Source: Oligoflexia bacterium (lineage in GTDB: Bacteria; Bdellovibrionota; UBA1018). Taken from it: a stretch of 64,000 nt of DNA. Every line of letters starts with the position of its first letter. Positions within the stretch are counted from its first letter, which is position 1. The notes below the pieces were generated by a model. The model was not told where the DNA came from. It was given only the letters and a program-made list of their open reading frames with translations, and did no database searches. The stretch is from the NCBI GenBank assembly GCA_903898645.1, contig CAIUGE010000037.1, positions 2,055-66,054 of the forward strand, written 5' to 3'. The position numbers and the translations under genes are program-made. Positions 1,260-23,813 of this stretch are shown piece after piece.

Positions 1260-1424
1260 TCATTTTCTCTTCGCTTTCTTGGGGGTGAGTGAAAGCTTGC
1301 CAAAGGCCTTCTGGATTTTCATTTTCTCTCGATGCACACGTTCTTGGCGGCGAATTTCTTGAGGAAAAAATTTCATTGCTTTTTCGATTTCTCGAAGCTT
1401 TGCTTTGTGTTCTGCGTCAGTCAT
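1260..1424 (-). CDS. Small basic/charged 54-aa protein (MTDAEHKAKLREIEKAMKFF...KKAKRK). Its start overlaps the stop of the upstream P-loop gene by 4 nt (ATGA)
   Basis: I translated this manually; it is below the ORF-track cutoff. The 4-nt overlap suggests translational coupling with the 1421..2044 ORF. No homology was recognised. Confidence 0.35.
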   Translation of the reverse strand: MTDAEHKAKLREIEKAMKFFPQEIRRQERVHREKMKIQKAFGKLSLTPKKAKRK

Positions 1425-2044
1425 GGAATTTCTGCCTTTAAAAAAGATGAAACAAATTCTTGCTGTTTGTGCGGGCTAAGATTTTCGAAATCGGCATTAT
1501 TTTGAATAGATTGAGGTTTTGTTCCAGAGTTATCAAAAATATACCAGTTCGTACAAAGAGGTCTATAAAGAGTCCAGAAATTATCAAAGCAACGAGGGTG
1601 ACGACGATGAACTGCTTCAGCTGGAATTGAATGCCCGCCTAGCTGCACTCGGTTCTTGATTCGTTGTAGATTTTTTTTAATGGAACTGAGGTACAGGAAA
1701 TAGATCGTCACTTGGTACCCTTGGTCGGTAGCGTTTTTGAGGATTTTCGTCCACGTTCTGCCGGATAACGTGGATTCAAAGGCAAAACTGTCTCCTCGGG
1801 CAATTATCGATTGCACTTTCTGAATGAGTATTCTTCCAGCATAAAATGATGCTTCTTCAGAGCTAAGAAGGCCTATGCCAGATGCAATAATGTTTGGGTT
1901 AAGGTAGGCGTTCTTACCAAGTTTTTTCATGAGGTACGTATTGGCGAAGGACGTTTTTCCGCTGCCGTTGGGGCCAGCTACAATTTCAATAACTTTACTG
2001 GTAACGAGAGAGGGAGGGCTTAGGGCTTCTAGTTTAATGTCCAA
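1421..2044 (-). CDS. P-loop NTPase/kinase-like protein of the zeta-toxin / AAA_33 type
   Basis: N-terminal Walker A motif AGPNGSGKTS is present. It is about 200 aa long with a hhhhD-like Walker B (DSFAFES). Family assignment is by eye only. Confidence 0.4.
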   Translation of the reverse strand: MDIKLEALSPPSLVTSKVIEIVAGPNGSGKTSFANTYLMKKLGKNAYLNPNIIASGIGLLSSEEASFYAGRILIQKVQSIIARGDSFAFESTLSGRTWTKILKNATDQGYQVTIYFLYLSSIKKNLQRIKNRVQLGGHSIPAEAVHRRHPRCFDNFWTLYRPLCTNWYIFDNSGTKPQSIQNNADFENLSPHKQQEFVSSFLKAEIP

Positions 2045-2809: not shown

Positions 2810-4231
2810 ATGGAACTTGTCGACCTTATTGCAGCTGTTCAGGATCATGTGCTGGCCTCTGCTATTCAACCTTGTGTGGTGACAGCTATTGGGCGTCATG
2901 CACAGAGCCTTGAGCAAGGTGCACTCTATGTTGCGTTGCATGGCACGCAAAATGATGGGCATAGGTACTGCGAGGAGGCATATGCCCATGGGGCATGCGC
3001 TGTGGTGATTGACGATCCTGAACTTTTTGAAAAACTGGTGGGACCGCGTATTCTGGTAGATGACACTGCTTTTGTCTATGGATGGCTTGCAAGTGCTTTT
3101 TTTGGCTACCCGAGTCGTTATATGCAGATGGTTGGTATTACAGGGACAAGCGGGAAGACAACAACAGCCCTGTTGGTGCAATCTATTATGCAGCCGAATG
3201 CGGGATGCATTGGTACGCTGGGTATCAGCTATGGGGACGAAATAATTGCTTCAAGTCATACGACACCAGATGCGTATGAGTTGCAGGGTGTGTTGGCGAG
3301 GATGCTGAGGGCTGGTTGCCGGGCTGTTGTGATGGAGGTATCGTCACATGCTTTGGTTCAAAGGCGACTTGACGGGACGTTTTTTGACGGCATGCTTTTT
3401 CTTAACCTTTCACCGGAGCATTTAGACTACCACACATCGATGGAGGAGTATTTTGAGGCCAAGGCTCTTTTGATGACGCGCTACCGTGAGCAGGCTGAGA
3501 AAGTGGGCAAGAAGCCATGTATTGTGCTTGAGTCAGGCTTTTATGGGCAAAAGCTTATGGCACGTACGCCAGGTGCAGTTTTTTTTGATGCCTCCTTTTT
3601 GCGGGGGGGTGAGGCAATTACGGGTGAGTATCTTGGTATTTCCATTCAAAGCTCTTTGGTGGGGCAGTTTCATGCCGCAAATATTGCAGCTGCGGTCAGG
3701 TTGATGCATGCATTGGGATACTCAAATGATGCGATTAGTCGAGGCATTGGAGCCTGTCAAGTGATCCCAGGTAGGCTGGATGAAGTTCATGAGGCGCGTC
3801 CCTATGGGGGGCGTGTTTTTATTGATTATGCACATAAGCCAGATGCACTTGAGAAAGTACTCATCGCTGTTAGGGCTTTGGAGCCTACGAAAAAACTTGG
3901 TGTTGTTTTTGGTTGTGGAGGCAATCGAGATACCAAAAAACGCCCTCTTATGGGCGCTATTGCAAGCAGGCTTGCAGATTGGGTCATAGTGACCTCAGAT
4001 AACCCACGCAATGAGTCGCCTGAGGCAATCATTGCAGCAATCATGGTAGGTGCATATAGCGCACGTGCTGTGAGTGACAGGCGAGAGGCGATCTGTGCCG
4101 CACTTGATCTGCTGCCGGGAGCGTGTATTGTGATCGCTGGCAAAGGACATGAAGAAGTTCAAATTTTCGGCAATCAGGAAGTGCCTTTTTCAGATAAGCA
4201 GGTCGTGCTTGAGTATTTGAAAAAATGTTGA
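2810..4231 (+). CDS. murE: UDP-N-acetylmuramoyl-L-alanyl-D-glutamate--2,6-diaminopimelate ligase
   Basis: Mur ligase P-loop [11 protein letters not shown] is present, with the C-terminal Mur ligase domain. It lies in the dcw gene order before mraY. Confidence 0.9.
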
Positions 4232-4235
4232 CAGC

Positions 4236-5333
4236 TTGCTTCCAGTCTCTGTAGCATTCAGTATGTTTTTGGCTCTTCTCTCACATTGGCACGGGTTTGT
4301 TGGCGCTTTTAACGTTTTTAAATACATCACATTTCGTACTTTTGGCGCGAGCATCACAAGTGTACTGATTGCTATGTGTGCGGGGCCTGCCTACATTAGG
4401 CTATTGAAGGTAAGGCAAATCGGTCAGCATATCAGGGATGATGGGCCGCAGAGCCATTTATCCAAAAAAGGCACACCGACCATGGGCGGGGGGCTTATCC
4501 TCGGTGCGGTTATGCTGTCGTCTTTGCTCTGGGCAGATCTAGGGAATCACAACATTCTTTTGACGCTTGCAGTTACTCTTGTCTTTGGCTGTATTGGCTA
4601 CCTGGATGATGCTAGGAAGGTGCAGGGGAAGCAGTCGCAGGGATTGACTAGTCGTCAAAAATTTCTCGCTCAATGTGCATGTGGTTTGCTGGCAGGCTTA
4701 GTGCTGTATCAGTATCACGATCCAAGTCTCCGGTTCCCGTTCTTTAAAGATTTATCCTGTCATTTGGGTGTTTGGTATGTCGTTATGGCGGCTTTTGTCA
4801 TTGTGGGCGCGTCTAATGGTGTCAATCTGACTGATGGGCTTGATGGGCTTGCGGTTGGACCATGTACGACAACGTTTGCAACATTTGCTATTCTCACCTA
4901 CTGTGCTGGGCATAGTAAGATAGCAGAGTATCTTCAGATACCGTATGTACCAGGTTGTGGGGAGCTAGCCGTTATATGTGGTGCATTTGCTGCAGCATGT
5001 CTTGGATTTTTGTGGTTTAATACGTACCCTGCACAGGTTTTTATGGGTGATGTAGGTTCTTTAGCTTTGGGTGCTGCTTTGGGATGTGTAGCAATTATCT
5101 CGAAAAATGAAATAGTCCTTGCGCTTTGTGGGGGCATTTTTGTAATGGAGACACTATCTGTGATCGCGCAAGTCGTATCATTTAAAATGACGGGGAAGCG
5201 AGTCTTTCGTATGGCTCCGATCCACCACCATTTTGAGCTCAAAGGGTGGGCGGAACCTAAGGTCATTGTACGCTTTTGGATTATTTCCATTTTGCTGGCG
5301 CTTGTCACCTTATCAACCCTTAAACTACGATAA
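4236..5333 (+). CDS. mraY: Phospho-N-acetylmuramoyl-pentapeptide transferase
   Basis: Multi-TM protein with the conserved [11 protein letters not shown]-terminus and HHHFELKGW motif. Confidence 0.9.
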
Positions 5334-8742: not shown

Positions 8743-10118
8743 ACATTGCTCCCCATAAAACCAGGCACAAAGTTTTGCATTTTGTCGGTGTTGGCGGCAT
8801 CGGTATGAGTGGTATTGCGGAACTTTTTTTTACCCAAGGGTTCCATGTCACAGGGTCAGATCTGCATCAAAGTGAGGTGACAGACCGTTTATGTCGGCTT
8901 GGTATTGAAGTGTCTATTGGTCATGCAGCCCATCTTGTGCATGGTGCAGATGTTGTTGTTGTATCTTCGGCTATTGTGCCCAACCATGTTGAGTTGGAAG
9001 AAGCGCGTCGATTACGTATTCCTCTTATTTCACGAGCTGAAATGCTTGCTGAGCTGATGCGAATGCGTGTAGGTATTGGTATTGCAGGCAGCCACGGCAA
9101 AACAACAACAACATCAATGCTAGCAACTATCCTGAACCATGCGGGCTGTGATCCCACGCTTGTTATTGGCGGTTGTGTCAATAGTCTGGGTGGGAAAAAT
9201 GCGCATTTAGGTGCAGGTGAGTACCTGGTCGCTGAAGCAGACGAGAGCGACGGGTCTTTTCTTGCATTGCCATGCACCTATGCGATTGTAACAAATATTG
9301 ATAATGACCACCTTGATCACTATGGCAGTATTTCGGCGCTTGATGCTGCTTTTGTCAATTTTGTAGGCAGGCTTCCTTTTTACGGTGTAGCTGCTGTCTG
9401 TGGTGATGATTTGGGTATTAAACGTTCCTTGGACCAGTTCCGCCGCAAAGTACGTACCTTTGGTTTGCATGCTGGTAATGATGTGACTGTTAGTCGTATG
9501 GAGCTGCAAGGACTAGGGTCTCGCTTCTGGCTCAAAGACGGAAGCGCTTTTCAGCTCCAAGTGCCAGGTGTCCATAATGTGCTCAATGCTTTGGGTGCCA
9601 TCACGCTTGCCTATGAGCTTGGTATTGGCCCCGATGTTATGTCCCAGGCTTTAGCTTCTTTTCAAGGAGTCACAAGGCGTTTTGAGATCAAGTGGGCATC
9701 TCAAACACAAGTCATTGTTGATGATTACGGGCATCACCCCACAGAAATAGCTGCAACGCTTAAAGCTGCGCGTACTTACTGGCAGGGACGTATTATTTGT
9801 ATTTTTCAACCCCACCGTTATTCTCGCACTGTGCATTGTCATGACGGGTTTCTCTATGCCTTTGCTGAGAGTGATATTGTGTATGTGACTGACATCTATG
9901 CTGCAGGAGAAAAAAGCATCCCTGGAGTCAGCGCTGAGTATCTCGTGCAGGAAATGCGACGAGTTGCGCGGCCCCACCAGCAGATTATTTACGGAGGCTC
10001 CCTTGAGGATGTGCATCACTATATCGATGTGCTCTTTGCACCAGGCGATATGATTCTCTGTCAAGGAGCTGGTTCTATTACGTCCTTAGCTACGCAGTTG
10101 GCAAAGCAATGCAGTTAG
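8739..10118 (+). CDS. murC: UDP-N-acetylmuramate--L-alanine ligase; no fused Ddl domain
   Basis: GIAGSHGKTTTTSM P-loop is present. The 459-aa length corresponds to MurC only. Confidence 0.9.
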   Translation: MNIAPHKTRHKVLHFVGVGGIGMSGIAELFFTQGFHVTGSDLHQSEVTDRLCRLGIEVSIGHAAHLVHGADVVVVSSAIVPNHVELEEARRLRIPLISRAEMLAELMRMRVGIGIAGSHGKTTTTSMLATILNHAGCDPTLVIGGCVNSLGGKNAHLGAGEYLVAEADESDGSFLALPCTYAIVTNIDNDHLDHYGSISALDAAFVNFVGRLPFYGVAAVCGDDLGIKRSLDQFRRKVRTFGLHAGNDVTVSRMELQGLGSRFWLKDGSAFQLQVPGVHNVLNALGAITLAYELGIGPDVMSQALASFQGVTRRFEIKWASQTQVIVDDYGHHPTEIAATLKAARTYWQGRIICIFQPHRYSRTVHCHDGFLYAFAESDIVYVTDIYAAGEKSIPGVSAEYLVQEMRRVARPHQQIIYGGSLEDVHHYIDVLFAPGDMILCQGAGSITSLATQLAKQCS

Positions 10119-10951
10119 CCCGTATTACCTACGTGAAAATAGGAGGGCCTGCAGATCATTTTTGTGCGCCCCGTTCCCTTGCTGAATTGCAGAATATTGA
10201 TCATCCTCATGTCTTTATTCTTGGTGCAGGCTCCAACCTTTTAGTCGCTGATAGTGGCTTTCGTGGATGCGTGATTAGTATGGAGCATTTTGTAAAAATC
10301 CATCTTGCAGGCCTGCTCTATGTAGGTGCAGGTATGCGCCTTTTCCCTCTTCTTCGTTACTGTCAGCAACAGGGGTTGTCTGGGCTCGAGTGCCTTGCGG
10401 GTATTCCTGGCTCTCTTGGTGGAGCGCTTGCTATGAATGCAGGCACAAGTCAGGGTTCTATATCAAGCTGTGTTGAGAGCATTGAGCTCTACTCTTTTTC
10501 TAGCAGAAAAGTCATCCGAATGCCGGTCTCTTCAGAGCATTTCAGTTACCGCGCGAATCATTTTCTGACGCCTGATACTGTGATTCTTGGTGCCTATTTT
10601 AAATACACGCCTGATGCGGTAGATGCCATTCAGTCAAAGATTATGCACGCACTTGAAAAAAGAAAAGCATCTCAGCCTGTATCTCAGCTCTCATTTGGGA
10701 GTGTCTTTAAGAATCCTCCTGGCGAATCTGCCTGGCAGGTCATCGAAAATATCGGTCTGCGTGGCTACAAAATAGGTGATGCGCAGTTTTCAGAAAAACA
10801 CGCAAATTTTATCATTAATCATGGGCATGCCCGCGCCCAGGATGTCAAAGCTCTGATTGAGCTTGCGCAGCAACGTGCCCTCGCTTTGGGGATTGCCCTG
10901 CAGACAGAAGTAGTGATGCTGGGGTTTGATTCAGGTAGACAAAGTCTGTAA
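10109..10951 (+). CDS. murB: UDP-N-acetylenolpyruvoylglucosamine reductase
   Basis: FAD-binding N-terminus (GGPADHF, GAGSNLLV) and the MurB C-terminal domain are present. Confidence 0.85.
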   Translation: MQLARITYVKIGGPADHFCAPRSLAELQNIDHPHVFILGAGSNLLVADSGFRGCVISMEHFVKIHLAGLLYVGAGMRLFPLLRYCQQQGLSGLECLAGIPGSLGGALAMNAGTSQGSISSCVESIELYSFSSRKVIRMPVSSEHFSYRANHFLTPDTVILGAYFKYTPDAVDAIQSKIMHALEKRKASQPVSQLSFGSVFKNPPGESAWQVIENIGLRGYKIGDAQFSEKHANFIINHGHARAQDVKALIELAQQRALALGIALQTEVVMLGFDSGRQSL

Positions 10952-11003
10952 AAAATGATACACAAGATTTATTTAATGTACCTGGTATCATGAGAGGAAT
11001 GAA

Positions 11004-11858
11004 ATGCGCATTTTATTGCTATGTATTGTTGCAGCGTTTGCAGTTGGACAAGCAGGGGCGGCTGGTAACGCTGATGCGGATCCGGGGGAAGTTCCGTCGC
11101 TAGGAGGGGAGCCGGACTTAGCTGAGATGCGTGCAGGACGAGTGGCTGTAGCGGAAACGTTGAGGCGTAGGTGGGTAGAGCTAGAAGGTCGTCTGTTTGC
11201 TGACATAGATGCCACACGTCAAGCGGAGCCTGTATCGCCAAGAGATGTAGAAGTAATACGGTATGTTGGTGATGTGCCATACTCTGCTTTTACGGGGGTT
11301 GCTCAACAGCCTGCTGCAGAAGTTATTCAAACCACTGTATCCGATGAGGATAAAGCTCTGGCGGCAGCAATTATGGACAGAGTGAGTGCACAGGATTTGT
11401 ATGAATCGGGGGCTGTGAGGCTTCCTGAGATGGTTGTTTATTTCAACAAGTTGCATATTTTCTCTTGTGGTAATGTTTCATTGGACGGCTATCATGCCAA
11501 GGGAGCTAAAGAAAAAGAGAAAGCAATAGCAAGAGCGTTGAGCTTATTGCCGGTTGAGTATGAGATAGAATGTTGCGTGAATGCAGAAAAGGTGTACGTC
11601 AATAGCCTACATGTATGCCAACAATGTGGAGCTTTTGTTAGTCCCGTGGTCGTGCAGGCCTGGAAGAATAAGTGTCCGTACTGTATGAAGGCGCCGTTGT
11701 TGCAGAATGCAAGGTCGACAGTTCTGGCAGAGGAAGATCGGATTATTATTTTGCCACCAGGCACTTTGGCTCGAAGGCGTCCAATGTATGAACCGACATT
11801 TCATCGAGAAGTAGTACGGGTTGTTAATGGTATGCAACAGATTTATCGCTATCCGTGA
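11004..11858 (+). CDS. Secreted protein, paralog A of a triplicated family with a C-terminal Cys-rich zinc-ribbon-like domain (CQQC...CPYC)
   Basis: Signal peptide MRILLLCIVAAFAVGQAGAA is present. The C-terminal approximately 100 aa are near-identical to ORF 12500..13390. Confidence 0.7.
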   Translation: MRILLLCIVAAFAVGQAGAAGNADADPGEVPSLGGEPDLAEMRAGRVAVAETLRRRWVELEGRLFADIDATRQAEPVSPRDVEVIRYVGDVPYSAFTGVAQQPAAEVIQTTVSDEDKALAAAIMDRVSAQDLYESGAVRLPEMVVYFNKLHIFSCGNVSLDGYHAKGAKEKEKAIARALSLLPVEYEIECCVNAEKVYVNSLHVCQQCGAFVSPVVVQAWKNKCPYCMKAPLLQNARSTVLAEEDRIIILPPGTLARRRPMYEPTFHREVVRVVNGMQQIYRYP

Positions 11859-11869
11859 TAGGGATATGT

Positions 11870-12290
11870 AATTTTATAAGTATTGCAACGCCAAAAGTAA
11901 TAGTACAGACTCCTGTCATGAGCATCAATCATAGTGATTACAACATTCGATTACGTGCAATAGAAGCAATTTCTGATGGCCTCAGGCATTTAGGTGCAAT
12001 AAATCAACAGTGCATCGATGGCTTCAGTCTTACAAAAAAATAAAGATACAGAAAGTCTTACGACAAAACTCAGAAGTGGACGACCAAGCGTGTGGTCTCA
12101 AGAAAATGACCAGCAACGTATAAGCGATGTCTTAAAGCCAGCCTCAGAGTTTGAAACTGATTTTTGGACATGTCACCGTCTTGTGCAGTACATCAAAAGA
12201 GATTTCAAGGAGAGATTTCGGGATCAACTATGTGGCGATACTTGCGCAAGGCTGGTTTGATGTATCAATAGCCAGAAAAACAATATAAGG
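11870..12290 (+). pseudogene. IS630/Tc1-mariner-family transposase remnant (N-terminal HTH region, broken into two short frames)
   Basis: ORFs 11855..12043 and 12018..12260 give RLRAIEAI.DG and KLRSGRPSVWSQEN...W.....I.....F patterns. These resemble IS630 transposase N-termini. No DDE domain is present. Confidence 0.45.
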
Positions 12291-12295
12291 AGGCA

Positions 12296-12432
12296 GACCC
12301 GGCAGCACAAGAGAAAATTTTATCATTAATCACGGGCAGGACGTCAAAGTGAGTATTGAGCTTGCGCAACAACGTGCCCTCGCTGGGATTACCTTGCAGA
12401 CAAAAGTAGTGATGCTGGGGTTTGATTCAGGT
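12296..12432. repeat. Duplicated fragment of the murB 3' end plus the murB-downstream intergenic/RBS region
   Basis: Directly visible nucleotide similarity to approximately 10800..11003, e.g. aaattttatcattaatca.gggca ... gtagtgatgctggggtttgattcaggtaga. Confidence 0.8.
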
Positions 12433-12499
12433 AGATGACGTCTGCAAAACATGCTATACACTATGCATTAAATGTACCTGGTGTCATGAGGGGAATAAA

Positions 12500-13390
12500 A
12501 TGCGCATTTTATTGTTATGTATTGCTACAGCGTTTGCAGTTGGACGAGCAGGGGCGGCTGGTGACGCTGATGCGGATCCGGGGGAAGTTCCAGCGCTAGG
12601 AGGGGAACCGGATTCAGCTGAGATGCGTACAAGACAAGTCATTGAGGATGCAAGGCGTATAGTTGCAGTGGCTACAGATGATGTCAGAGCAGCTAGTAGG
12701 GCTGCAGAGGCTTTCGGGTCTGCAGAGGTTGCAATGCGCTCATATATTGAAAGCCTGGGCGGCTTCTTCCGGGCAGGGGAGAGAGGAAGGTTTGTAGCGC
12801 GTGGATACGATGAGCTTCGGGAGCTGTATTACCAATTTGAGTCCGAATGTCATGCAGCGAGGCGTGAAATGCCGGCAGAGGATCTATGGCAGAGATGGAG
12901 TGTTGTTGTGGAGGATCAACAGCCTGCTGTAGAAAGTCAGCTTTCAGCAGAAGCTATTCAAGCCGCTGTAGAAAAAACAAAGCGTGAAGCTCCCGAGTTA
13001 TTAGAGCATAGACTAGCAGCTGCATCCGCTGAGGATAAAGCTCTGGTGGCAGCAATTATGGACAGAGTGAGTCCACAGGATTTCTATGAATCGGGGGCTG
13101 TGAGGCTTCCTGAGATGGTTGTTTATTTCAACAAGTTGCATATTTTCTCTTGTGGTAATGTTTCATTGGACGGCTATCATGCCAAGGGAGCTAAAGAAAA
13201 AGAGAAAGCAATAGTAAGAGCGTTGAGCTTGTTACCGGTTGAGTATGAGGTGGAATGTTGCGTGAGTGCAAAAAAGGTGTACGTCAATAGCCTGCATGTA
13301 TGCCAAGAATGTGAAGCTTTTGTTAGTCCTGTGGTCGTGCAGGCCTGGAAGAATAAGTGTCCGTACTGTATGAAGGAGCCGTTGTTGTAG
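12500..13390 (+). CDS. Secreted protein, paralog B of the Cys-rich C-terminal-domain family
   Basis: ATG at 12500 starts a signal peptide MRILLLCIATAFAVGRAGAA. The track ORF begins at 12422 by read-through. TAG at 13388 corresponds to CAG in paralog A, so B is about 52 aa shorter at the C-terminus. Confidence 0.7.
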   Translation: MRILLLCIATAFAVGRAGAAGDADADPGEVPALGGEPDSAEMRTRQVIEDARRIVAVATDDVRAASRAAEAFGSAEVAMRSYIESLGGFFRAGERGRFVARGYDELRELYYQFESECHAARREMPAEDLWQRWSVVVEDQQPAVESQLSAEAIQAAVEKTKREAPELLEHRLAAASAEDKALVAAIMDRVSPQDFYESGAVRLPEMVVYFNKLHIFSCGNVSLDGYHAKGAKEKEKAIVRALSLLPVEYEVECCVSAKKVYVNSLHVCQECEAFVSPVVVQAWKNKCPYCMKEPLL

Positions 13391-13639
13391 GATGCAAGAT
13401 AGCTTGGGGTAGGGATGAGGAATGTCTGAGTGTTGCAATAAACGCTGACAGAGCTCGAGGGGATATATCGCCAAGACATGAACAAGAAATATCGTATGTT
13501 GGTGATGTGCCATACTCTGCGCTATCAAGATAGGTAGGGGAGCGGCAAGGAATTTCTTTTTTTGAATGACTTCAGACGCATCTTTTGATGATCTAGACAT
13601 ATTGAAATGGGGGATTGTGCATTTTAGAAAGTAGTAAGA

Positions 13640-14110
13640 ATAGTGTTATGTATCTTTTCTCTGGCTCTCTTGGTGGAGCTTTTGCTATGAATACCAGGAT
13701 GTCTTTTGAAGACATCTGCTGCCTCGACGAATCAGTTTCTTGTGCCTGACCTGATGGTTCTTGGTGACTATTGAAAATCTGAGGTACTAAATCATAATTC
13801 CATTATGAATCATTGATGCGCTTGAAAAAAAGCATCTCAGCTCGGTATCTTCCTTCTCATTTTTTGAGTATCTTTAAAAGCTTCTTTGGCGGACCTGCTT
13901 AGCAGGTCACCCAATGCGGCGGTCTGTGTGGTTATGGAGTAGGTGATGCGCAGTTTTCAGAAAAAACTCAAATTTTATCATGAATCACGGGCATGTCTGC
14001 GCCCAGAACGTCAAAGCGCGTATTGAGCTTGCTCAATAACGTTCTCTCGCTATTAAAGTTGCTTTTCAGACGACAGTAGTGATGCTGGGGTTTGATCCAG
14101 TCAGATGTCA
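13640..14110. pseudogene. Degenerate copy of the murB 3' half (non-coding remnant)
   Basis: Nucleotide similarity to murB 10398..10950, e.g. ctctggctctcttggtggagc..gctatgaat and ggtgatgcgcagttttcagaaaaa. Frames are disrupted. Confidence 0.75.
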
Positions 14111-14228
14111 GTCTTGACTTTTGTAAAAACATATAGTGCATAGCAAACGTGCGGTATTCTCATGCATTATAAATAATAATCGGATATATTGTTGATGGCT
14201 TTTTCATTGTTACAACGAGAGGGATGAA

Positions 14229-14918
14229 GTGCACATTTTATTTTTATGTTTTGTCGCAGCGTTTGCAGTCGATCGGGAGGGGTCTGTGCATTCTGAGGTT
14301 CCGTTAGAAGCAGATGGATGGGGAGGGGTGGGGCTTGGTGGAGCTCTGAGCTGGGCTGACGTTGTGGGGCAAGACTCGATGCAGGATGAGGATGAAGCGT
14401 TTCAGGAAGCTGTCAGACAATCAATGGATACGTTGAGCCAGCAACAGCGTATGGAAAGTCAGCATCAAGCATGTAGAATTAAAGCTGCTGCAGAAGTAAT
14501 AAAGCATGCAGCTCCGAAATTATTAGAGCAAAGATTGAAGTCTGCATCAGATGAAGTAAAGTTTTTGGTAGCAGTCATTACTGATAAGGTCAGTCCTGAT
14601 GCTATGTATGGGTTATCGGTCGAGACTCTTTTCGAGATGGCTAGCTACTTGCGTGACGCATTGCATCTTTTTCCGTGTGGAGATGCGGCATTGAAAGAGT
14701 ATCATCACAAGGGAGATGAAAGGAAGATGCAAGCAATCGTGGAGGCGATTGGGTTATTGCCAGTTGAGTACCAGATAGAGTGCCCTATTGAAAGAGACAG
14801 CATATGGGTTGGGGCTGTGTGTTCATGCCAATTTTGCAAGAAGTTTTTTGGTCCAAACGTTGAGAAGTTCTCGAATACTAGGTGCCCATTCTGTAGAGGC
14901 GCTTTGCCTATTCGTTAA
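14229..14918 (+). CDS. Secreted protein, divergent paralog C of the Cys-rich C-terminal-domain family; apparent GTG start
   Basis: N-terminus VHILFLCFVAAFAV aligns to the MRILLLC signal peptides of A and B. The start codon is GTG, and the nearby ATG at 14224 is out of frame. C-terminus ...LLPVEYQIEC...CSCQFC...CPFC is conserved. Confidence 0.6.
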   Translation: MHILFLCFVAAFAVDREGSVHSEVPLEADGWGGVGLGGALSWADVVGQDSMQDEDEAFQEAVRQSMDTLSQQQRMESQHQACRIKAAAEVIKHAAPKLLEQRLKSASDEVKFLVAVITDKVSPDAMYGLSVETLFEMASYLRDALHLFPCGDAALKEYHHKGDERKMQAIVEAIGLLPVEYQIECPIERDSIWVGAVCSCQFCKKFFGPNVEKFSNTRCPFCRGALPIR

Positions 14919-16179
14919 TGCTCGCGGCATCAATATGGGTGCTGTTGTCCAGTTTTAGATGAGTGCCAAGGAGGGTAACTGAAATGTTTTCAGGACGAAA
15001 GAACGCTTTCAGGGCTGCGTTGACCTCGGGATAGGTGATGTTTTTAATCCTATCTTTCTCATGAGCAAAAAAACCTTCTTCTAGACCAAAAACAACTTCA
15101 TGGAGTTTGTTCTCTAGACGTTTGGATGGGGTGTTTGTTTGAAAATCAGCACTTTTGATGAGGCTTTCCTGGGCAAATAAAAATTCGTCCTGACTAATTC
15201 CTTTTTGAATCCAATTGCGAATAAGCTGCCAGGCAAGTTCGTATGCTTCCTGAGTGCGCTTGGTTGCAGGGTAGAGGAATGCCTGCCAGAGGTAGGGTTC
15301 GGTTGCAAACAGGAAGCGGCTTCGTGCGCCGTAGCTCAGTCCGCGATTGACGCGAATTTCTCGCATGAGTGTTGATGAGAACATGCCACCACCAAATGCA
15401 TGGTTGGCAATCATCAGGGGTGCGCTTTTTGTGATAGCAGGGCCTGGGTGCGTGAAGATAATCTGTGATTGGGTGCGCTCTTTTTTATCAATAACAGTCA
15501 TGCTTGGCTGGTATGTACTGGGTGCTGAGGTTTTTGCTTCAAGTGGCACAGATGATAGACCGAGGTTTTTGACCCAGGACTCAATCATATCTTTTTGAAA
15601 ATCGCCTGAAACAAGAATAATAGCATTCTGTGTATGAAGCGTGCGCGCTGAGTGTTGTCTGAGTTGGTCCTGGGTGATGGCTCGTAATGTACTTTTTCGT
15701 CCATAGGCACCATGTCCGTAAGGGTGTTTTTGGCCAAAGGCCGCATGGCTCGAATAACTGAGAGCAAGTGACATGTCGCTATTCTGCTCTTCGTCGAGCT
15801 GTGCAATCATTTCATCGCGAAGTATGGTGCATTCGTCTTCTTGAAACCTAGGCTGTTCAAGAACATCTTTGATGAGTCTGAGGGATGGTGCTGCGTTGCG
15901 CGAAAGCATGGTTGCATGAAGCGCCGTATAGTCAGCATGTGTTTCGCAAAAAATTGTTGTGCCTAGATCATCAAAAGCGGCACTGAGCTCCTGTCTCGAT
16001 TGTATAATGGTGCCTCGTAGGAGCATCTTGCAGAGAAATGCTGTTATCCCTTCTCGGCCTTGGGGATCACTTGCGTACCCGCCTCGGAATGCAATAGATG
16101 CATGGATGAGTGGGATGGTTGTGTCAAGTTCGGTATGAAGGATCGCTGCCTGCGCAAGCGTTAGAAGAAGTGCTATCAT
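14908..16179 (-). CDS. M16-family peptidase-like protein (non-catalytic partner type), secreted
   Basis: Signal peptide is present. M16 fold pattern with no HxxEH motif. The start overlaps the upstream M16 gene by 4 nt. Confidence 0.6.
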   Translation of the reverse strand: MIALLLTLAQAAILHTELDTTIPLIHASIAFRGGYASDPQGREGITAFLCKMLLRGTIIQSRQELSAAFDDLGTTIFCETHADYTALHATMLSRNAAPSLRLIKDVLEQPRFQEDECTILRDEMIAQLDEEQNSDMSLALSYSSHAAFGQKHPYGHGAYGRKSTLRAITQDQLRQHSARTLHTQNAIILVSGDFQKDMIESWVKNLGLSSVPLEAKTSAPSTYQPSMTVIDKKERTQSQIIFTHPGPAITKSAPLMIANHAFGGGMFSSTLMREIRVNRGLSYGARSRFLFATEPYLWQAFLYPATKRTQEAYELAWQLIRNWIQKGISQDEFLFAQESLIKSADFQTNTPSKRLENKLHEVVFGLEEGFFAHEKDRIKNITYPEVNAALKAFFRPENISVTLLGTHLKLDNSTHIDAASINE

Positions 16180-23222: not shown

Positions 23223-23813
23223 TTACGTGCGTCCTTTGACTTCGTGGGCAAGCTCGGCAAGTACGAGTTGGGAGCATGCATTGAGAGTTTCCATCACGCC
23301 AATGCCTTTGTGTGCAATTGCTTCGAAATAAGGCCTATCCATGGGATTGAGTGTTGCATTGAGTTCAGCAATGCTTAACTTCTGTGGTATGTCGCGCTTA
23401 TTGTACTGAAAAACAAGGGGTATGCTGTGGATGTCGTAGCCTTGGTTCTCGAGCGTCTTTTCGAGTTGATTGAGTGTCTCGATATTTGCTTCCATACGTT
23501 CTTGGGAGCTGTCTGCGACAAAAATGAGTCCATCAAGACCACGGAGGATAAATTGACGTGATGTATCGTAGAAGCTTTGTCCAGGCAATGTATAGAGATG
23601 CAATCTTGTTTTGAGGCCATTGCGTTCTCCAATCCCTAAGGGCAGAAAGTCAAAAAAAAGCGTGCGTTCATTTTCAGCGCTGAGCGATACCAGTTGTGTG
23701 TTATTCGTTTTTTCATAAATATACTGCATATTGGTTGTTTTGCCACTCATGCCCGGTCCGATATAGATGACCTTGCAGTTTACCTCTTTTGCTGTCAGAT
23801 GGATGAAGCTCAT
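23223..23813 (-). CDS. mglA: MglA-type Ras-like small GTPase
   Basis: Approximately 60% identity by eye to Myxococcus MglA. P-loop GPGMSGKTT and switch II LYTLPGQ are present. Confidence 0.8.
   Translation of the reverse strand: MSFIHLTAKEVNCKVIYIGPGMSGKTTNMQYIYEKTNNTQLVSLSAENERTLFFDFLPLGIGERNGLKTRLHLYTLPGQSFYDTSRQFILRGLDGLIFVADSSQERMEANIETLNQLEKTLENQGYDIHSIPLVFQYNKRDIPQKLSIAELNATLNPMDRPYFEAIAHKGIGVMETLNACSQLVLAELAHEVKGRT

Follow-up and report, generated by a model that had tools for sequence, protein, structure and literature searches.

How did the slot that separates murB from the convergent M16 peptidase gene in an Oligoflexia bacterium (Bdellovibrionota; UBA1018) come to hold three genes of one family, the second and third each preceded by a piece of murB? 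The locus lies in a stretch of 64,000 nt (assembly GCA_903898645.1, contig CAIUGE010000037.1, positions 2,055 to 66,054 of the forward strand), which is called the window here and to which all coordinates refer. The region 10000-15000 was compared with the whole window by self-BLASTN, and an independent repeat search was run. The array is probably a lineage-specific tandem family between murB and the M16 gene, made by segmental duplications that began inside murB and reshaped afterwards. The order murB 3' end, intergenic region with ribosome-binding site (RBS), paralog is present three times on the same strand in a three-way alignment and is made up of the following genes and pieces.

10109-10951, plus strand: intact murB (UDP-N-acetylenolpyruvoylglucosamine reductase), 280 amino acids (aa), from Pfam and homologue alignment
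10804-11143, plus strand: 5' module of unit 1, comprising 148 nt from the end of murB, 52 nt of intergenic DNA with the RBS, and 140 nt from the start of paralog A (signal-peptide part)
11004-11858, plus strand: paralog A, 284 aa, with signal peptide, A-type middle and conserved C-terminal Cys domain, from the open reading frame (ORF) list and alignments
12315-12447, plus strand: murB remnant 1 (murB'), 133 nt, the last 40 codons of murB only, without a start
12448-12499, plus strand: copy of the intergenic region and RBS directly 3' of murB', from the repeat alignment
12500-13390, plus strand: paralog B, 296 aa, with N-terminus and C-terminal domain as in A and a different 380-nt middle
13661-14115, plus strand: murB remnant 2 (murB''), a pseudogene copy of murB from ~10407 to its end, ~455 nt
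14217-14269, plus strand: RBS and start of paralog C, homologous to those of A (86.8%) and B (81%)
14229-14918, plus strand: paralog C, the copy that has diverged most, with 229 aa and a GTG start, from the ORF list and alignment

Self-BLASTN returned significant similarity between all of the intervals for which an earlier sequence-only reading of this DNA had claimed it. The 5' module at 10804-11143 matches 12315-12639 (84.1%, 340 columns, E 5.5e-105), 10554-10934 matches 13728-14100 (73.6%, E 4.9e-55), and 10407-10438 matches 13661-13692 (93.8%). The first recurrence had been placed at 12296..12432; that repeat is real, but the interval starts about 19 nt early (the match begins at 12315) and stops before the intergenic/RBS copy that ends at 12499. 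A longer, degenerate murB copy placed at 13640..14110 agrees with the matches at 13661-14100, and similarity of murB'' to murB possibly reaches ~13640, weakly. As had also been claimed, each murB piece is followed by a paralog ORF with conserved RBS and start in the three-way alignment. A piece of the middle of paralog A recurs after paralog B, where 11233-11287 matches 13466-13520 (89%, E 2.5e-14). Local alignment of 11173-11287 with 13407-13520 scored 48, against 9.8 ± 1.4 (maximum 17) in 300 shuffles, and tblastn with A residues 57-97 recovered the same piece (E 6.6e-5). It had been described as a 55-nt piece at about 13455..13510; the coordinates were about 10 nt off and the length is 114 nt. 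The strongest repeat, 11335-11713 against 13020-13398 (379 nt, 95%, gapless), was absent from the sequence-only reading and corresponds to the C-terminal domains of paralogs A and B. The stray piece begins 9 nt past its end in B (13398).

11335-11713, plus strand: A copy of the 379-nt A/B repeat, containing a 130-nt identical tract at 11400-11529
13020-13398, plus strand: B copy of the 379-nt A/B repeat, from self-BLASTN and the repeat search
13407-13520, plus strand: stray copy of the middle of paralog A, 114 nt, matching 11173-11287, with its core at 13466-13520

The first murB had been taken to be the only functional one, and comparison with its two remnants bears this out. The gene at 10109-10951 is above the Pfam threshold for MurB_C (E 2.4e-29) and FAD_binding_4 (E 4.6e-13), and all residues invariant across 13 homologues are present; it alone has the complete FAD_binding_4 and MurB_C architecture with an intact ORF, which murB' and murB'' lack. 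Both remnants derive from its 3' part. Two in-frame deletions (12 nt and 3 nt) are carried by murB', and murB'' lacks ~80 nt internally and has 12 further indels, of which 10 shift the frame; each of its reading frames holds 7-9 stop codons. Since murB' is truncated and has no start, and murB'' is frameshifted with stops, only the first murB can function. Differences between murB'' and murB are spread evenly over the codon positions (25/19/26%), which indicates neutral decay. In a three-way comparison of 10804-10951, 12315-12447 and 13970-14115, 11 changes were unique to murB and 4 to murB'; more changes in the functional gene than in the dead copy is the reverse of naive expectation, in numbers too small to interpret.

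The paralogs themselves are real genes, as indicated by their intact ORFs and a long-range ratio of nonsynonymous to synonymous divergence (dN/dS) of ~0.3 (0.31-0.33 for C against A and B, with dS saturated). A, B and C each start with a typical Sec signal peptide, read from the sequence as MRILLLCIVAAFAVGQAGA followed by AG, after which come a variable middle and a conserved domain of ~125 aa with an invariant H..H..C..CxxC-x15-CPxC pattern (C190, C205, C208, C224 and C227, plus H151 and H164). Paralog C runs at its 3' end into the M16 peptidase gene, which is convergent with it (14908-16179, minus strand). In paralog A, translation continues past ...PLL, since a CAG codon (11703) stands in the place of the TAG of B; this gives A a C-terminal tail of 51 aa, and the DNA coding for the tail (11703-11858) has no counterpart downstream of B. 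A family-profile search of 5.8 billion proteins returned four members only, namely B (P0001), an A variant (P0002), C (P0003) and P0004, a fourth paralog of 320 aa whose gene lies near lspA/lgt in another part of the organism's genome and which the middle of B resembles. Homology of the A tail to the 33-aa tail of P0004 was rejected, as 255/1000 shuffles scored as well. When 1.84 billion representatives were searched exhaustively with a hidden Markov model (HMM) profile of the C-terminal domain, only B and C came up; the paralogs had no Pfam match, and the family profile had no match in GTDB genomes or JGI metagenomes. Judged by these searches, A, B, C and P0004 are an orphan family.

We call the C-terminal Cys domain zinc-ribbon-like. 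Its invariant motif is CxxC-x15-CPxC; zinc ribbons have two CxxC knuckles ~15 residues apart on a pair of beta-hairpins. One upstream Cys and two His are also the same throughout the paralogs, and the top zinc-ribbon and RING matches were non-significant. An AlphaFold (AF2) model of the domain had a predicted local distance difference test (pLDDT) score of 61, which is low confidence. Foldseek of this model against the PDB gave only matches at E>1, among them weak U-box/RING and zinc-ribbon ones, and a sequence profile search of the PDB with the domain reached RpoP (Rpo12)/aS34 zinc ribbons at E 0.04-0.1, which is not significant. A RING or U-box E3 ligase domain was rejected: the eight cross-brace ligands are missing, Pfam zf-C3HC4_3 matched at E 4.1, and the Foldseek matches were those at E>1. 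With a Sec signal peptide on the paralogs, the cysteines could equally form disulfides.

Related genomes point to the state of the locus before the array. The closest MurB outside the organism was 48% identical, so the lineage is isolated, and when GTDB genomes were scanned with the MurB alignment, metagenome-assembled genomes of Bdellovibrionota/Oligoflexia ranked top. We take the organism to be an uncultured bacterium of Bdellovibrionota type that branches deeply. Five relatives have murG-murC-murB, two convergent M16 peptidase genes and ftsA-ftsZ in the same order as the window, with FtsZ at 85-90% identity in the best aligned segments. The gap between murB and the M16 gene is ~80-100 nt in three of them (L008, L011 and L014) and 3957 nt in the window; L006 and L015 have unrelated genes there. 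Relatives of the paralogs were absent from 80 murB loci of other genomes. Given the short gap in relatives and no paralogs in the 80 loci, the 3957-nt array is a lineage-specific filling of a variable slot in the division/cell-wall (dcw) cluster.

The dcw cluster of the window (1-23200) is atypical in other respects. A zeta-toxin-like gene (1421-2044, minus strand) lies between ftsI and murE, no murF is present between murE (2810-4231) and mraY (4236-5333), and no ddl was found in 1-23200. About 9 kb separate murB from the ftsQ-like gene, ftsA and ftsZ, and hold the array, the two M16 peptidase genes and two unknown genes. The M16 pair is conserved among Bdellovibrionota relatives.

Parts of the array recur at 99.7-99.9% identity in independent metagenome assemblies. 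murB with paralog A (284 aa) is on a 1937-nt contig of ERZ1426645, and a 2099-nt contig carries paralog B and, as far from it as in the window, the 58-aa ORF that lies downstream; contigs L086 and L087 carry murB-A, L001 carries B (99.9% identical across 12457-13443), and L002-L004 carry C-M16. P0001, identical to paralog B, occurs in other assemblies, and P0003, which is C with a difference of 1 aa, occurs in four. The adjacency 11906-12138 is the sole link without a counterpart in a second assembly. The array parts in independent assemblies are therefore not an artefact of one assembly. That the whole array consists of mis-joined or falsely expanded repeats is very improbable: short-read contigs of other samples do break in or beside it, and L005 joins A to sequence downstream of B, but copies that have diverged by 5-35% cannot be one sequence counted repeatedly, and murB with A, B with the 58-aa ORF and C with M16 were each assembled separately. 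The same figures dispose of the term amplification used in the sequence-only reading, as copies that differ by 5-35% among themselves and recur nearly unchanged elsewhere are old, fixed paralogs.

Contig L005 is a perfect A-to-B hybrid in which window 10777-11691 is joined to 13377-13555. It is identical to A through 11691 and to the 3' end of B and its downstream sequence from 11692, the switch lying inside a 46-nt stretch shared by both copies (11646-11691), and the protein encoded on it, P0002, is A terminated at EPLL*. Because it is a perfect mosaic of two diverged copies, the switch must be recent. It is either a real 1685-bp recombinational deletion between A and B or an assembly chimera.

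A second difference between assemblies lies upstream of paralog C.

14155-14156, no strand: polymorphic breakpoint, with different sequence before 14156 in four other assemblies

In L002, L003 and L004 the match to the window begins at 14156, preceded by overhangs of 52, 76 and 27 nt; the fourth case, an ERZ1426645 contig, was judged by matching gene coordinates alone. By record name, the contig with the 76-nt overhang is from MEGAHIT (k141) and that with the 27-nt overhang is from Logan. Overhangs below a plausible assembler word size are what is expected where contigs meet a multi-copy repeat, and a repeat or insertion sequence (IS) was presumably inserted before 14156, upstream of paralog C, in other strains. 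The unrelated sequence before 14156 opens a minus-strand ORF, MLSFIVAPTSIFMRPKRP... At the other side of murB, positions 1-33 of L087 differ from window 9930-9962: upstream of 9963 the contig has a GC-rich, in-frame, different murC 3' sequence, and two other contigs begin at exactly 9970. L087 may be chimeric here, or strains may differ by a breakpoint within murC.

The sequence-only reading explained the copies by serial segmental duplication with subsequent decay. The class of event is right, as the copies are direct and collinear and start inside murB, but divergence is uneven and simple decay fails to account for it. Between units A and B, identity is 88.7% in the murB part (murB' against 10804-10951, gaps excluded, with a further 15 gap columns), 78.8% in the intergenic region, 90.7% at the N-terminus and 95% in the C-terminal domain; the 5' parts differ from the C-terminal domain with Fisher p=9e-4. 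Paralogs A and B have dN/dS 0.72-0.79 at dS 0.06-0.12, and the 379-nt repeat has dS 0.06-0.07 and dN/dS 0.72-0.74. At a dN/dS of ~0.7, similarity of the C-terminal domains is not explained by selection, and recent gene conversion does explain it. The recent divergence of A and B is nearly neutral or diversifying.

The third unit shows a mismatch of another kind. Third-position differences amount to 54% between the bodies of A and C and to 26% between murB and murB'' (p=1e-5). A coding region cannot outdiverge a neutral pseudogene of the same age, so the body of C and its murB'' are of different ages. Either the 5' module of C is younger, or it was converted by murB (gene conversion of murB'' by murB being an alternative account of the mismatch), or the bodies of A and B were replaced from another member. 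The co-eval divergence expected of plain tandem duplication is thus found neither within the A/B unit nor for murB'' and C. The paralogs also share segments in conflicting combinations: an 18-aa deletion and the string LAAAIMDRVSAQDL are common to A and P0004, the segment EKTKREAPELLEHRL / EVIKHAAPKLLEQRL at the start of the domain is common to B and C, a long middle is common to B and P0004, and further into the domain A and B are nearly identical. Judging from these patterns, gene conversion or mosaic recombination must be added to the duplication model.

The joins between units carry additional sequence. A plain unequal-crossover junction, as the sequence-only reading would have it, is contradicted at the A/B join by an intervening segment with an IS remnant.

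11714-12314, plus strand: A/B join, 601 nt, holding a decayed, frameshifted N-terminal remnant of an IS630-family transposase at ~11918-12314

Three reading-frame pieces of the join were joined by hand into a 133-aa pseudo-protein for HMM matching, which matched the NCBIfam IS630 transposase model NF033545 (E 1.2e-5, model positions 39-129/299). Pfam HTH_33 (E 3.2e-5) and HTH_32 were also matched. The IS630-like match runs up to 12314 and is truncated exactly at the start of murB'. The DDE catalytic part is missing and there are several frameshifts; with only the N-terminal helix-turn-helix part left, this is a remnant and not an element. No terminal inverted repeats were found in 11650-12400, the putative end has no second copy, no target duplication was seen, and searches of the window and of 5.8e9 proteins turned up no intact copy. 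A multi-copy IS as the cause of the contig breaks at 11906/12138 was not supported, as no other copy was found. The B/C join consists of the 114-nt A-middle patch and ~140 nt of other DNA, and 11714-12314 has no homology to 13399-13660 (local score 19, against 19.2 ± 2.1 in shuffled sequence).

The remnant raises the question of whether the IS itself made the A/B duplication and later lost its right half, which would be a variant of the proposed history for the A/B step, the B/C junction being outside its scope. Amplification of an "unflanked", locus-joining type has been described (Yelin & Kishony 2026, PMC13423834), a lone IS linking successive amplicon copies end to start with no IS on the outside. 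The position of the single remnant in the window fits this: it is found precisely where copy A (ending at 11713) gives way to copy B (starting at 12315), and no IS flanks the array. Here, however, the IS is a truncated, frameshifted fossil without recognisable ends; what is left covers only the model positions given above, the right junction is an internal truncation, and neither terminal inverted repeats, a target duplication nor an intact copy was found. It is equally possible that the IS inserted once the duplication existed and that neighbouring DNA was then deleted, which explains the same picture. An origin of the duplication by the IS seems to us somewhat unlikely. A deletion adjoining the IS would explain why murB' is much shorter than murB'', and the shorter murB' may reflect an IS-associated join or a later deletion, not a second breakpoint.

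Elements that integrate at the 3' ends of genes leave a displaced 3' fragment downstream of their cargo. The murB pieces could on that ground be read as attachment (att) site duplications from mobile elements that integrated at the murB 3' end with a paralog as cargo, since such integration would give the same order. Against this, no integrase or recombinase was found between 10951 and 14918 by ORFs and Pfam, the fragments are unequal (133 against ~455 nt), no relatives of the cargo were found in any other genome searched, and homology does not stop at murB but takes in the intergenic region, the RBS and part of the paralog, so that the "cargo" copies the resident neighbour. We regard integration of this kind as highly improbable.

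Tandem segmental duplication followed by reshaping remains the preferred explanation, and its breakpoints and order of events, as we infer them from the sequence, would be as follows. The starting point would be an orphan gene whose product is secreted by Sec and has, at its C-terminus, a Cys-rich, zinc-ribbon-like domain; the gene would have been copied in direct orientation with left breakpoints inside murB, each downstream copy inheriting a 5'-truncated murB end together with the intergenic region, RBS and signal-peptide coding part. The murB pieces, having no start, have decayed neutrally, and the first murB has stayed intact. An IS630-family element may have mediated the A/B duplication, or may have inserted there and been partly deleted, possibly shortening murB'. 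Conversion or mosaic recombination, including the fourth paralog, would have homogenised the C-terminal domains of A and B, swapped middles and uncoupled the ages of 5' modules and bodies. The 114-nt A-middle piece after B would be left over from a complex junction or from a copy since lost.

Several points weigh against this history. At none of the junctions does the end of one unit still meet the start of the next cleanly, so the sequence does not tell unequal crossover from illegitimate recombination, template switching or an IS-mediated event. The unequal ages of the parts mean that C may not stem from the event that gave murB''. The IS was assigned on a sub-threshold score (24.9 bits, cutoff 100) of the hand-joined pseudo-protein, without an intact relative. 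The domain model is of low confidence and without significant fold or sequence relatives, and the taxonomy was taken from synteny and protein identities, not from a marker phylogeny.

The proposed history has the features of known tandem segmental duplication-amplification, namely direct repeats, a left breakpoint in the upstream gene and a 5'-truncated copy of that gene before each extra gene; in such arrays, the copies can recombine homologously and so be gained, lost or converted. The array differs in being old, diverged by 5-35% and fixed rather than unstable under current selection, and its joins are no longer clean, the A/B join now holding the IS remnant and the B/C join the stray 114-nt patch. 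Arrays of genes for secreted proteins or effectors evolve by gene conversion and segment shuffling, as in contingency loci and variable surface or effector families. The signal peptide, variable middle, conserved domain, mosaic copies, near-neutral or diversifying divergence and strain polymorphism are common to both, whereas the present array has only three to four members and is not known to phase-vary or switch.

One short block within the murB pieces is conserved beyond the rest.

10909-10930, plus strand: 22-nt block AGTAGTGATGCTGGGGTTTGAT, invariant in the three murB 3' copies, also at 12405-12426 and 14075-14096

A search for AGTAGTGATGCTGGGGTTTGAT at <=3 mismatches found those three positions only in the window, 74-95, 74-95 and 133-154 nt upstream of the start codons of A, B and C. 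The length of the invariant run had a permutation P=0.0008, or 0.018 with each indel counted once, and the exact 22-mer was not found in JGI metagenome contigs. The murB 3' pieces might have been retained because they are useful as the promoter or operator of the downstream paralog, so that only duplicates with them were kept. Such a role concerns retention and not origin, and it is compatible with duplication from inside murB. It is suggested by the block being invariant in three copies though murB'' has diverged by 23-26% overall, and by a weak sigma-70-like site (TTTTCA-N17-TATCAT) common to murB and murB''. The statistics are modest, however, once indels are collapsed; promoter-like sites are no commoner than in shuffled sequence (10 against 6.5 ± 2.6), the -35 part is missing from murB', and the DNA upstream of the paralogs gave no signal of RNA structure (z-scores +0.5, +0.3 and -0.7). 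We consider retention as a promoter unlikely. A bolder variant, which we hold to be a long shot, is that the murB 3' end with the 22-mer, the RBS and the signal peptide might form a portable expression-and-secretion cassette, re-attached by recombination to divergent orphan zinc-ribbon bodies, the array then being a diversifying effector locus wired to the cell-division operon.

Other observations concern the rest of the window. A 403-aa ORF (47040-48251, minus strand) has a MYND zinc finger (Pfam E 4e-7) and a SET domain (E 7e-6), a eukaryote-like architecture that is unusual in bacteria and may hint at interaction with a eukaryotic host. A 196-aa ORF beside recR (23223-23813, minus strand) matches the Arf small-GTPase family (E 1e-6) and may be an MglA-like GTPase of the Ras superfamily. 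GC skew is positive (G>C) in all 1-kb windows over the 64 kb, whatever the gene orientation, and no tRNA or Rfam families were found in the window.

The mechanism at this locus is ordinary, the footprint of segmental duplication followed by recombination and not a new kind of element, and no new mechanism is revealed. For annotators, the two murB-like stretches downstream of murB are dead fragments, and for assemblers, the locus is one that breaks short-read assemblies. It is an example of a taxonomically restricted family growing inside a strongly conserved operon, in a slot of ~90 nt in relatives and 4 kb here. The murB pieces serve as datable pseudogene "tree rings", and their disagreement with the ages of the genes they precede exposes later gene conversion. 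If the cassette idea were true, the array would be an effector locus in a Bdellovibrionota lineage that also encodes eukaryote-like SET+MYND proteins. The part with real discovery potential is the secreted Cys-rich family alone, and our best guess is that the paralogs are secreted or periplasmic proteins interacting with prey, host or envelope.

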